Below are positions 35,315 through 41,823 of a DNA stretch of 42,130 nt, in pieces. Under the pieces are notes generated by a model, which had not been told where the DNA came from, searched no databases, and saw only the letters and a list, made by a program, of their open reading frames with translations. The position numbers were made by a program, and so were the translations under genes. Position 1 is the stretch's first letter. Each line of letters starts with the position of its first letter. Source of the stretch: a virus (taxonomy: Duplodnaviria > Heunggongvirae > Uroviricota > Caudoviricetes). The stretch is from IMG/VR virus record IMGVR_UViG_2917398303_000001. The stretch is one strand, 5' to 3'.

Positions 35315-38300
35315 ATGGGTAAAGGCAGCAGTAAGGGACATACCCCGCGCGAAGCAAAGGACAATCTGAAGTCCACGCAGTTGCTGAGTGTGATCGATGC
35401 CATCAGCGAAGGGCCGATTGAAGGTCCGGTGGATGGATTAAAAAGCGTGCTGCTGAACAGTACACCGGTGCTGGACAGTGAGGGGAATACCAACATCTCC
35501 GGTGTCACGGTGGTATTCCGGGCAGGTGAGCAGGAACAGACACAGCCGGAGGGATTTGAATCCTCCGGATCCGAGACGGTGCTGGGTACGGAAGTGAAAT
35601 ACGACACGCCGATCACCCGGACCATCACGTCTGCAAACATCGACCGTCTGCGCTTTACCTTCGGTGTGCAGGCACTGGTGGAAACCACCTCAAAGGGTGA
35701 CAGGAATCCGTCGGAAGTCCGCCTGCTGGTTCAGATCCAGCGTAATGGTGGCTGGGTGACGGAAAAAGACATCACCATTAAGGGCAAAACCACCTCGCAG
35801 TATCTGGCCTCGGTGGTGGTGGGTAACCTGCCGCCGCGCCCGTTCAATATACGGATGCGCAGGATGACGCCGGACAGCACCACAGACCAGCTGCAGAACA
35901 AAACGCTCTGGTCGTCATACACCGAAATCATCGATGTGAAACAGTGCTACCCGAACACGGCACTGGTCGGCGTGCAGGTGGATTCGGAGCAGTTCGGCAG
36001 CCAGCAGGTGAGCCGTAATTATCATCTGCGCGGGCGCATTCTGCAGGTGCCGTCGAACTATAACCCGCAGACGCGGCAATACAGCGGTATCTGGGACGGA
36101 ACGTTTAAGCCAGCATACAGCAACAACATGGCATGGTGCCTGTGGGATATGCTGACCCATCCGCGCTACGGCATGGGGAAACGTCTTGGTGCGGCGGATG
36201 TGGACAAATGGGCGCTGTATGTCATCGGCCAGCATTGCGATCAGTCGGTGCCGGACGGTTTTGGCGGCACGGAGCCGCGCATCACCTGTAATGCGTACCT
36301 GACCACACAGCGTAAGGCGTGGGATGTTCTCAGTGATTTCTGCTCGGCGATGCGCTGTATGCCGGTATGGAACGGGCAGACGCTGACGTTCGTGCAGGAC
36401 CGACCGTCGGATAAGGTGTGGACCTATAACCGCAGTAATGTGGTGATGCCGGATGATGGCGCGCCGTTCCGCTACAGCTTCAGCGCCCTGAAGGACCGCC
36501 ATAATGCCGTTGAGGTGAACTGGATTGACCCGAATAACGGCTGGGAGACGGCGACAGAGCTTGTGGAGGACACGCAGGCCATTCTCCGTTACGGTCGTAA
36601 CGTCACGAAGATGGATGCTTTTGGCTGTACCAGCCGGGGGCAGGCACACCGCGCCGGGCTGTGGCTGATTAAAACGGAGCTGCTGGAAACGCAGACCGTG
36701 GACTTCAGCGTGGGTGCAGAAGGGCTTCGCCATGTACCGGGCGATGTCATTGAAATCTGTGATGATGACTATGCGGGTATCAGCATCGGCGGGCGCGTGC
36801 TGGCGGTGAACAGCCAGACCCGGACGCTGACGCTCGACCGTGAAATCACGCTGCCATCCTCCGGCACCACGCTGATAAGCCTGGTTGACGGACAGGGGAA
36901 TCCGGTCAGCGTGGAGGTCCAGTCCGTCACCGACGGCGTGAAGGTGAAAGTGAGCCGGGTTCCTGACGGCGTTGCCGAGTACAGCGTGTGGGGGCTGAAG
37001 CTGCCGACGCTGCGCCAGCGCCTGTTCCGCTGTGTGAGTATCCGTGAGAACGATGACGGTACGTATGCCATCACTGCCGTGCAGCATGTGCCGGAGAAAG
37101 AAGCCATCGTGGATAACGGGGCGCACTTTGACGGTGACCAGAGCGGCACGGTGAATGGTGTCACGCCGCCAGCGGTGCAGCACCTGACCGCAGAAGTCAC
37201 CGCAGACAGCGGGGAATATCAGGTGCTGGCGCGCTGGGACACGCCGAAGGTGGTGAAGGGCGTGAGCTTCCTGCTTCGCCTGACCGTGGCTGCGGATGAT
37301 GGCAGTGAACGGCTGGTCAGCACGGCCCGGACGACGGAAACCACATACCGCTTCAGGCAACTGGCGCTGGGAAATTACAGGCTGGCAGTCCGGGCGGCAA
37401 ATGCCTGGGGGCAGCAGGGCGATCCGGCATCGGTATCGTTCCGGATTGCCGCACCGGCAGCGCCGTCGCGGATTGAGCTGACGCCGGGCTATTTTCAGAT
37501 AACCGCCACGCCCCATCTTGCCGTTTATGATCCGACGGTACAGTTTGAGTTCTGGTTCTCGGAAAAGCGGATTACCGATATCAGGAAGGTTGAAACCAGC
37601 GCGCGTTATCTTGGCACGGCGCTGTACTGGATAGCCGCCAGTATCAATATCAAGCCGGGCCATGATTATTATTTTTATATCCGCAGTGTGAATACTGTTG
37701 GCAAATCGGCATTCGTGGAGGCTGTCGGTCGGGCGAGCGATGATGCGGAAGGTTACCTGGATTTTTTCAAAGGCCAGATAACCGAATCTCATCTCGGCAA
37801 GGAGCTGCTGGAAAAAGTCGAGCTGACGGAGGATAACGCCAGCAAACTGGAGGAGTTTTCGAAAGAGTGGAAAGACGCCAACGATAAATGGAATGCCATG
37901 TGGGGCGTCAAAATTGAGCAGACCGAAGACGGCAGGCATTATGTCGCGGGGCTTGGCCTCAGCATGGAGGATACGGAGGAAGGTAAACTGAGCCAGTTCC
38001 TGGTTGCCGCTAACCGTATCGCGTTTATTGACCCGGCAAACGGGAATGAAACGCCGATGTTTGTGGCGCAGGGCAACCAGATATTCATGAACGAGGTGTT
38101 CCTGAAGTATCTGACGGCGCCAACCATTACCAGCGGCGGTAATCCTCCGGTATTTTCCCTGACACCGGACGGGCGGCTGACGGCGAAAAATGCCGATATC
38201 AGCGGTAACGTGAACGCGAACTCCGGGACGCTCAATAATGTCACGATTAACCAGAACTGTCGGATTATGGGAAAACTGTCTGCCAACCAGATTGAAGGTG

Positions 38301-38713
38301 ATATTGTCAAAACGGTGGGAAAAGCCTTTCCGAGAAATGGCAGTTATGCCAGCGGTACAATAACGGTCACTGTGTACGATGACCAGGCTTTTGACCGTCA
38401 GATAGTAATCCCACCCGTTCTGTTTCGCGGTGGTAAGCATGAAAACTTCAACAGCAACAACCAACAGTCATACTGGTATTCGACCTGTAAGCTGCAGGTA
38501 CTGAAGAACGGACAGGAAATCTTTCAGCAACCCGCGACGGATGTCAGCAGGGTATTTTCATCCGTCATTGATATGCCAGCGGGACACGGCCATGTCACCC
38601 TGACTTTCAATGTTTCTTCATATGGTGCTCATAACTGGACGCCAACGACCAGTATCAGCGACCTTCTTGTTGTCGTGATGAAGAAATCAACAGCCGGTAT
38701 CAGTATCAGTTGA
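35315..38713 (+). CDS. J: central tail fibre / host-specificity protein J
   Basis: 1132-aa ORF; N-terminal about 980 aa match lambda gpJ; the C-terminal about 150 aa look divergent from lambda. Confidence 0.95.
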
Positions 38714-38732
38714 ATTTTATAACCCAAATACG

Positions 38733-38758
38733 GGCGCCAGAAATGGCGCCTTTTTTAT
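38733..38758 (+). terminator. intrinsic terminator after J
   Basis: Stem GGCGCC / GGCGCC with loop AGAAAT, followed by TTTTTTATTT. Confidence 0.7.
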
Positions 38759-38771
38759 TTGTGGAGTGAAT

Positions 38772-40834
38772 ATGGCAGTACAGATTTCAGGCGTGCTGAA
38801 AGACGGTGCAGGAAAACCAATACAGAACTGCACTATTCAGCTCAAAGCAAAGCGTAACAGCACCACGGTACTGGTGAACACGGTGGCCTCTGAAAATCCG
38901 GATGAAGCCGGGCGTACAGCATGGATGTTGAGTACGGTCAGTACAGCGTCATTCTGTTGGTGGAGGGATTCCCGCCGTCACATGCCGGGACCATTACCGT
39001 CTATGAAGGTTCCAGGCCAGGTACGCTGAATGATTTTCTCGGTGCCATGACGGAAGATGATGTCATGCCTGAGGCATTGCGCCGTTTTGAGGAAATATTG
39101 GAAGAAACGGCACGAAACGCTGAAGCTGCCTCTCAGAGCGCAGCGGCGGCAAAGAAATCCGAAACTGCAGCGGCATCATCGAAGAACGCGGCGAAAACGT
39201 CAGAGACGAATTCAGCCAACAGCGAGAAAGCTGCTGCATCTTCTAAAACAGCATCAGAAACAGCAGCAACAGCAGCATCACTTTCAGAGGCTAATGCCCG
39301 GGCGTCAGAGGAGAAATCTGCAGAAAATGCTGACGCAGCACGTCGTGAAGCATTATTAGCGACAACTGCAGCTGAAACTGCCACCACAAAAGCGCAGGAG
39401 GCCGCAGCAGACGCAACAAAGGCCGGGCAGAAAAAGGATGAAGCCGTCGCGGCGGCGACACGTTCGGAAGCGGCGGCAGACCGCGCAGAAGCTGCAGCGG
39501 AAGTGACTGTAAAACCATATGTGAATATAGTTCCGCCGCTGCCTGATGTCTGGATTCCGTTTAATGATTCACTGGATATGATTACGGGCTTTTCGCCGTC
39601 ATATAAAAGGATTGTTATTGGCGATGATGAAATAACAATGCCTGGCGACAAGATTGTAAAGTTTAAACGCGCATCAAAAGCAACTTACATTAATAAATCT
39701 GGTGTGCTGACAGAGGCTGCCATTGACGAGCCACGATTTGAATGTGATGGCCTGCTTATTGAGGGGCAAAGAACGAACTTCTTCCCGAACAGTACAGACC
39801 CTTCGAAGTGGAATAAGTCAACTTCACTGGACGTTACAGAAACAGGCACAGATAGTTTCGGTTTTAATTATGGCCGGTTTGTCGTACAGGATTCGATTGT
39901 TGGCACAAGTAAAGCGCATACCATTATAGGGCTGTATTCAAGTACCGGAGGGGTTGATACTTCAGGTGACGAAAAGTATGTAACTATATCCTGTCGGGTA
40001 AAAAGTGAAGTTGATAATATCGCCGTTCGTATTTTATTTGAACATTATGATGGGGAGGTAAGGACATCAATAGGAGCAGCAAGCCTGAACCTTACCACCC
40101 GCATAATTAGCAAGACAGGCCAGACAAGCCGTGTTACAGCAAGGTCTGTTAAGGAAGATGCAACTGGCTGGATATTTTTTGAGGCTACATTAAAAGCAGA
40201 TACAACAGAAAATACGGTTGGTGGTTTCGTCCAGTATTCTCCGGATACAGGGCAGATGGTGGCATCAGGGGATTGTCTCGATGTAACCACTCCACAGATT
40301 GAGGCTGGTACAGGCGCATCATCTTTTATTGTTACGGGGGCGGCACCGGTAACGCGGGCAAGCGATATAGTTACAGTCCCAATTAAGAATAATCTTTATA
40401 ATCTTCCTTTTACGGTTCTTTGTGAGGTACATAAGAACTGGTATAAAACGCCAAATGCAGCACCGCGTGTTTTTGATACCGGCGGTCATCAAACCGGAGC
40501 GGCTATTATTCTTGGCTTCGGTTCTTCAGCAGATTACGACGGATTTCCTTATTGCGATATTGGTGGGTCTAACAGACGGATAAACGAAAATGCATCACTT
40601 GAAAAAATGGTTATGGGGATGCGTGTAAAGTCTGATCAGTCTACATGCGCAGTAAGTAACGGGCGTATATCCAGCGAAACAAAAACCACATGGTCATATA
40701 TTCAGAACTCCGCAATTATCCGTATTGGAGGCCAGACTACAGCCGGTTTACGCCATTTATTTGGTCATGTCAGGAATTTCAGAATATGGCATAAAGAATT
40801 AACTGATGCGCAAATGGGGGAGAGTATTAAATGA
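38772..40834 (+). pseudogene. stf: side tail fibre Stf: lambda-type N-terminal anchor, Ala-rich coiled coil, non-lambda C-terminal domain; apparent frameshift after codon 46
   Basis: ATG at 38772 opens MAVQISGVLKDGAGKPIQNCTIQLKAKRNSTTVLVNTVASENPDEAGR, then the frame is lost; the continuation MDVEYGQYSVIL... is in the -1 frame (ORF 38921..40834). Confidence 0.7.
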
Positions 40835-41121: not shown

Positions 41122-41823
41122 ATGGCTACATCGACAGTAATTCCAGGAGATATCACTACGCTAAAGGGAGATGTCAGTAAAGCTAAGGAAGATATTTCCT
41201 CAATTAGCGGAAAAGTATCAACGCTTCAGACTGATATGGACAGTGCAAAGCAGGATATCAGTACCAGATACACAAAAACTGAAGTGGATAATAAGCTGAA
41301 AAATAAAGTAGAAGTGAATGATCTGGAAAGCGGTCGTTATGGCGGGGATTTTTATCCACTGACAGGTCGTGAAGCGTTTTATTTATGGAATTTGGCTACG
41401 ACTACAGCTGCGGCAAACCTTTATCTTAATCCTGACCCCGCAATTTCGTCTGTATTGCGGTCAACATCGTCTATCCGCTATAAGCATTCAGTAGAGACGA
41501 TAGATTCAGAGCACGCCGATCTCATTCTCAAGATGCGCCCTGTATGGTACAGGTCGCAATGCGAAAATGACAGGCGTGATTGGGGGTTCTATGGATTGAT
41601 TGCCGAGGAAGTAGGAGAAATTGCCCCTCAGTTTGTACACTGGCGACCAGCTAACGAAGATGATGCTCCTGAAGCTATTTCCAGCAATGGCCTTGTTGCC
41701 GAAGGTGTAATGTACGAACGTCTGGTTGTTCCACTGATTCACCATATCCAGAAACTGACTGAAAGAGTTGATGAACTTGAGTCAGAATTAAAGCTGTTAT
41801 CAACTTCCCGAAGCGATATCTGA
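41122..41823 (+). CDS. fibre-like protein with C-terminal intramolecular-chaperone (peptidase S74-like) domain
   Basis: 233-aa ORF with GAGGGAGA RBS; N-terminal coiled coil; C-terminal region (SSIRYKHSVETI ... WGFYGLIAEEVGEIAPQFV ... GLVAEGVMYERLVVPLIHHIQKLTERVDELE) resembles the S74 auto-cleaving chaperone domain of tail fibres and tailspikes. Confidence 0.5.
   Translation: MATSTVIPGDITTLKGDVSKAKEDISSISGKVSTLQTDMDSAKQDISTRYTKTEVDNKLKNKVEVNDLESGRYGGDFYPLTGREAFYLWNLATTTAAANLYLNPDPAISSVLRSTSSIRYKHSVETIDSEHADLILKMRPVWYRSQCENDRRDWGFYGLIAEEVGEIAPQFVHWRPANEDDAPEAISSNGLVAEGVMYERLVVPLIHHIQKLTERVDELESELKLLSTSRSDI

Follow-up and report, generated by a model that had tools for sequence, protein, structure and literature searches.

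A lambda-like prophage whose J protein carries a phage 21-type receptor-binding tip

The J protein of a lambda-like prophage resembles lambda J over most of its length and departs strongly from it at the C-terminal tip, and we considered whether such a tip implies a receptor other than the porin LamB. The gene lies in a stretch of viral DNA of 42,130 nucleotides, which is referred to here as the window, and for which a first-pass annotation had proposed that the receptor is ‘probably not LamB’. The prophage is integrated at tRNA-Thr(CGT), adjoining proA: the host flank with proA occupies positions 1–1444 and ends in the tRNA gene (1369–1444), directly beside which the integrase gene is found on the minus strand (1459–2622). 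The best identity of this host flank among 5,380 complete E. coli genomes was 96.7% and none of them reached 99%; it is possible that the host comes from a divergent Escherichia lineage. Gene J, which encodes the tip attachment protein or central tail fibre, is present on the plus strand (35315–38713) as an intact open reading frame of 1132 amino acids, and its residues 1–1131 match the solved lambda J chain 8iyk_J with 2316 bits. All six Pfam domains of the J series are present in the expected order and each scores above its cut-off: FNIII-A_GpJ (residues 86–207), Phage-tail_3 (330–496), Ig_J (610–714), Ig_J_second (716–818), Phage_Tail_Tip (845–972) and, at the tip, the Ig-like receptor-binding domain Ig_GpJ_C (PF12421; residues 1010–1132, positions 38342–38710 on the plus strand; E = 1.9e-37). 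Open reading frames of 109, 232, 247 and 223 amino acids, matching tail-tip genes M, L, K and I in size, lie directly 5′ of J and carry Phage_min_tail, Phage_tail_L, NLPC_P60 and Lambda_tail_I domains (read in identical database contigs), and by both its domain series and its place the gene is a lambda-type J. A long antisense open reading frame (35915–38464, minus strand, 849 amino acids, TTG start) is contained within J; no evidence that it is a gene was found, and the codon composition of J probably accounts for it.

Comparison with lambda J (NC_001416) located the departure precisely. Amino acid identity was 97.6% over residues 1–805, 93% over residues 806–905 and 92.5% over residues 906–972, and fell to approximately 46–47.5% (76 identical residues over 160–164) in residues 973–1132, where three indels separate the two proteins: four residues are absent near lambda positions 1008–1011, five are extra near 1046–1050 and one is absent near 1100. 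At the nucleotide level, identity to lambda in 90-nucleotide windows exceeded 0.9 across most of the gene, and dropped to 0.84 from J nucleotide ~2790, to 0.72 at ~2880 and to 0.51–0.69 from ~2925 (position ~38240) to the stop codon. Counted per 50 nucleotides, mismatches to lambda numbered no more than seven up to J nucleotide ~2850, 10–11 between 2850 and 2950, and 13–34 from there to the stop codon. The gene can accordingly be divided into a lambda-like body (35315–38164, plus strand), which comprises the hub domains, the FNIII and Ig domains, the alpha-helical shaft and most of the central straight fibre; a transition zone (38165–38265, plus strand), in which the mismatches to lambda per 50 nucleotides rise from 5 to 10, 11 and 22 while those to phage 21 decrease from 10 through 8 to 3; and a specificity module of the phage 21 type (38230–38713, plus strand) that encodes residues 973–1132 and the stop codon. 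The first-pass annotation had placed the divergent part at 38230–38713, which corresponds exactly to residues 973–1132 and contains the peptide that it quoted, and had described the remainder of J as lambda-like; both descriptions are borne out (47.5% identity and three indels in the tip, 92–98% identity over residues 1–972), and the alignment of the tip with lambda J and known variants that it had called for revealed no near-identity to lambda throughout. The tip is thus not the lambda allele (76 of 160 residues identical to lambda J 973–1132). Chance or an artefact as the source of the divergence was excluded by the sharp boundary and by the 96–99% likeness of the divergent part to other phages.

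The divergent tip is the allele of phage 21. Aligned with phage 21 J (GenBank OL657228, CPT_21_21), the last 160 residues were identical at 157 positions (98.1%) without a gap, the only differences (window residue first) being M985L, I1032V and H1106N, which places the tip well within the phage 21 type as we delimit it here (at least 95% amino acid identity, ungapped, over the last 160 residues). As the alignment is ungapped, the indel pattern relative to lambda is common to both phages. The tip is closer still to J of phage 1W, from which it differs, again ungapped, at the sole position H1106N (159/160), and phage 4A7 likewise matched at 159/160. In total, 23 sequenced phages matched the 484-nucleotide interval at 96.5–98.6% DNA identity, with phage 21 at 96.5%. 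Codon differences from phage 21 within the module were mostly synonymous (14, versus 3 non-synonymous), a pattern expected of purifying selection that points to conserved function.

These comparisons establish J as a natural recombinant, in which the first ~970 residues are lambda-like and the last ~160, which form the Ig-like receptor-binding domain and the end of the beta-prism fibre before it, are the phage 21 allele. The likeness to phage 21 does not extend into the shaft: phage 21 J is 1160 amino acids long and has there an unrelated segment of ~100 residues with a 28-residue insertion, only 48% identical to window residues 806–905, and the two genes accordingly differ at J nucleotides ~2400–2750, where the window follows lambda. 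Window J, whose shaft is lambda-like and differs from that of phage 21 J, is therefore a three-way mosaic. The same mosaic, with a J of 1132 amino acids made of a lambda-like body and a phage 21-type tip, is found in phages 1W, 3W, 4A7 and Lambda_4C10 (OM475428, OM475430, NC_049946 and LR595861), whose J genes are 96.4% identical in nucleotides to that of the window over the whole gene; these relatives differ in having Asn rather than His at position 1106, in 18 other amino acids of the body and in an intact side tail fibre gene. Over the whole gene, J of the window and of phage 1W differ by 97 synonymous and 19 non-synonymous codons. The boundary agrees with the work of Maddamsetti et al. 2018 (PMC6646904), who described residues 960–1132 of J as a specificity region exchanged by recombination independently of the remaining J, and natural J lineages as marked by indels near residues 1012, 1048–49, 1077–78 and 1107; the module of the window coincides with this region, and three of these four sites are those at which it has its indels relative to lambda. 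It is therefore one more instance of the known exchange and no different in kind: the feature is real and already known, a common allele in a known mosaic arrangement. Phage D2 (OM475427) matched only nucleotides 232–348 of the 484-nucleotide interval (38461–38577), at 97%, and its J is annotated as two pieces, an indication that in some relatives the receptor-binding domain itself has recombined further or been disrupted.

The divergence in sequence is not accompanied by a change of fold. An AlphaFold2 model of residues 996–1132, built on 32 homologues, was all-beta with a mean pLDDT of 89.3. A Foldseek search against the PDB with this model returned as best matches the fibre of the A8 gpJ chimera, free (9wca_F) and bound to OmpC (9wcb_F), with TM scores of 0.90–0.91 and 80% identity, followed by the lambda fibre, free (8xck_F) and bound to LamB (8xcj_F), with TM scores of 0.84–0.85, an rmsd of 2.8–3.0 Å and 45% identity; beyond the A8 and lambda fibres no PDB match exceeded a TM score of 0.45. 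The lambda domain (8xck, 8xcj) thus shares with the modelled tip the Ig-like fold, the Pfam family and the place at the end of the same fibre, and differs in sequence (47.5% identity) and by three indels that lie at, or close to, positions diagnostic of natural J lineages. On this model, the window tip is the same Ig-like receptor-binding domain as that of lambda, and what differs is the allele, with the fold unchanged. A new domain or fold was ruled out by the Pfam Ig_GpJ_C match together with the fold search.

When complete E. coli genomes were searched, the phage 21-type module (at least 95% nucleotide identity) was detected in ~1,080 of 5,426, or approximately one in five, including the type strain ATCC 11775 and Nissle 1917. 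The C-terminus of lambda J (L002:4421–4904) was present in 98 of the 5,426, in all cases at 99% identity or more, and the five carriers among the matches listed were laboratory strains, with B derivatives or DE3 lysogens accounting for four; it is thus lambda's own tip allele that is the rare one in nature. A homologue database search returned mostly gene fragments and served to define allele classes and not a tree. Among sequenced phages, related tip alleles form a graded series by identity to the window tip: 1W and 4A7 (99%), the phage 21 type (98%), the BP-4795 type (89%), the A8 type (81–82%), the VT1-Sakai type (64–66%), Fels-1 (47%), lambda (~46–47.5%) and phage 434, an OmpC user (45%).

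As phage 21 is the nearest characterised relative of the tip, its receptor is the best available guide to that of the window. The native receptor of phage 21 is LamB, and knocking out lamB protected cells from lysis by the ancestral phage (bioRxiv 10.1101/2023.04.13.536812). Coevolution gave rise to phages that lysed the lamB knockout and then failed on a lamB/ompC double mutant (bioRxiv 10.1101/2023.04.13.536812), the latter result identifying OmpC as the new receptor of the evolved phage. In agreement, Table 1 of PMC11336670 gives the ancestor as using LamB only and the first evolved isolate as using LamB and OmpC, with I1025T as its single J mutation. The corresponding codons of the window (I997/V998, in the motif EGDIVKT; 38303–38308, plus strand) are equivalent to I1025/V1026 of phage 21, so that both phages have I/V at the trimer axis and the window, which keeps Ile at 997, is in the unmutated state of the I1025T site. 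By analogy with phage 21 we infer, with somewhat better than even confidence, that the J tip of the window uses LamB, and the proposal of the first-pass annotation that LamB is probably not the receptor finds no support in a tip that shares 157 of 160 residues with a LamB user and has an unmutated I997. Three residues of the window that are unlike phage 21 (M985, I1032 and H1106) count against this assignment. A further point against it concerns the reference itself: the phage 21 stock proven to be LamB-dependent carries G18903A (E1071K) relative to GenBank, and the equivalent window residue, 1043, is Glu as in GenBank. Receptor data for phages 1W, 3W, 4A7, PhiR and Lambda_ev were sought in the literature and none were found; a paper using the PhiR phages holds no receptor data on them, and lambda is the sole lambdoid phage covered in a receptor-screen preprint of 2026.

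The lambda and window alleles have one fold in common, and the differences between them are for the most part substitutions and indels near the distal loops. Were the tip to act in this way, the J trimer would engage a trimeric porin of the outer membrane, its distal loops docking into the extracellular mouth, upon which the tail tip would open as in lambda. The porin would most likely be LamB, as for phage 21, with a specificity probably unchanged from that of lambda despite 52% sequence divergence; by this analogy, the lambda and window tips probably use the same receptor. More generally, since the phage 21 tip is divergent from lambda (~47% identity) and yet uses LamB, divergence from the lambda reference is not in itself grounds for predicting that the J tip of a lambda-like phage has a new receptor, and the opposite case is provided by a tip 82% like that of phage 21 that uses OmpC. 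Receptor prediction for prophages, as in the design of delivery vectors or phage cocktails, consequently needs reference alleles with measured receptors and not distance from lambda.

This OmpC-using tip is the basis of the strongest alternative, namely that the window tip, like the natural A8 gpJ domain, binds OmpC as its primary receptor and that the earlier proposal of a receptor other than LamB was right, which we consider unlikely. Brödel et al. 2024 (PMC11338833) fused natural gpJ C-termini to lambda J, and one of the resulting chimeras, A8, delivered DNA to a lamB/ompC double deletion supplied with OmpC on a plasmid, which wild-type lambda failed to do (PMC11338833); by experiment the receptor of A8 is thus OmpC and not LamB, and its complex with OmpC has been solved (9wcb, gpJ713). 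The A8 sequence, which we took from the PDB alignment, is identical to the window tip at 131 of the last 160 residues (82%), with equal length and no gap, and its fold matches that of the window with a TM score of 0.90 (9wca free, 9wcb OmpC-bound). The A8 tip occurs naturally as an allele of E. coli prophages (160/160 to clusters P0008, P0011 and P0013). As a domain so similar binds OmpC, some doubt over LamB remains, and OmpC use was moreover gained by phage 21 through one mutation in 12 of 12 replicates (bioRxiv 10.1101/2023.04.13.536812). However, an 82% match is not the near-identity that an A8-type tip would display, and the differences are distributed in favour of phage 21: of the 26 positions in residues 996–1132 at which the window differs from A8, 25 have the phage 21 residue in the window, and the one remaining is position 1106, where phage 21 and A8 both have Asn. 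Furthermore, ancestral phage 21 did not infect through OmpC, and the window keeps I997. LamB thus remains the preferred receptor, although phage 21 is one mutation away from OmpC use and the clade is therefore close to the boundary between LamB and OmpC. The OmpC-using EHEC siphophage phi330 was also considered as a match and was rejected as a different tip type; its authors reported that its receptor-binding domain is 35–40% pairwise identical to those of lambda and phage 434.

A second alternative centres on residue H1106 (codon CAT, 38630–38632, plus strand), which lies in the loop that joins the two final strands of the domain, within a long non-strand segment of the AlphaFold2 model (1104–1116). 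This alternative holds that the rare change N1106H, possibly together with M985 and I1032, shifts or widens the specificity of the tip, for example to LamB and OmpC or to a divergent Escherichia LamB variant, and we regard it as improbable, more so than primary use of OmpC. The residue is unusual. Phage 21, 1W and E. coli ATCC 11775 encode Asn (AAT) at position 1106, and Asn likewise occupies it in all 24 of the database cluster representatives in which the surrounding motif is present, none of which has His. A 61-nucleotide query centred on the H1106 codon had no exact match among the 1,082 module-carrying complete E. coli genomes; the best matches had one mismatch, which in ATCC 11775, the one genome aligned, was at codon 1106. 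Scans of species-representative genomes with exact 40-mers for the His and Asn versions returned no match to either. In the pairwise alignment H1106 lies opposite lambda D1107, a natural hot spot and one of two residues always required when lambda gains OmpF use in the laboratory (PMC6646904), so that the predicted loop of H1106 is aligned with the D1107 loop. In addition, the proA-thrW host flank is at most 96.7% identical to any complete E. coli genome. Against this, N1106H is a single substitution of hypothetical effect, whereas lambda needs four mutations for a new receptor (PMC6646904), and the equivalence of H1106 and D1107 is uncertain because it rests on an alignment of low local similarity beside an indel. 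The exact J protein was found in two assemblies, one from NCBI (GCA_004745285.1) and one from a read set (SRR6148338), which may come from the same isolate, and N1106H could be without consequence, or could stem from sequencing or assembly and be common to two records of one isolate. The narrower claim that N1106H adjusts the tip to a LamB variant present in a divergent Escherichia host, or adds a second porin such as OmpC, is a shade less probable again. If true, it would represent a natural single-residue change of host range at the loop equivalent to the lambda hot spot D1107.

The region downstream of J bears on the last alternative. Between J and the side tail fibre gene stf (38714–38771) the window, unlike lambda, contains no lom gene; an intrinsic terminator (38732–38761, plus strand), with an 8-bp GC-rich stem (hairpin 38732–38751) followed by a T-run, leads directly to the start of stf. 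Phage 21 has the same organization, without lom and with the same element annotated as a terminator in its record. As delimited by alignment with phage 21 and phage 1W, stf (38772–40834, plus strand) is frameshifted by the deletion of one nucleotide between 38914 and 38915 relative to these two phages, which splits the gene into open reading frames in different frames (38766–39029 and 38921–40834, the latter of 637 amino acids). The first ~50 stf codons are consequently out of frame with the 637-amino acid reading frame, in which the Pfam phage_tail_N domain is matched only from profile position 51. The same deletion is present in the NCBI contig that carries the identical J, and with stf frameshifted, adsorption would depend solely on J, as it does in laboratory lambda, where stf is interrupted by a frameshift other than this one. 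That the frameshift instead marks a defective prophage, whose J tip is free of selection and uninformative on current receptor use, is very improbable given the intact 1132-amino acid J, the preponderance of synonymous differences (97 versus 19 relative to 1W over the whole gene, 14 versus 3 relative to phage 21 in the module) and the full infectivity of laboratory lambda without a functional stf (PMC11338833).

Located 3′ of stf is an open reading frame of 233 amino acids (41122–41823), for which phage 21 has no annotated counterpart at the corresponding place. Its N-terminal half is coiled-coil-like and its C-terminal part matches Peptidase_S74 (E = 1e-6), a domain that functions as an intramolecular chaperone of tail fibres and spikes.
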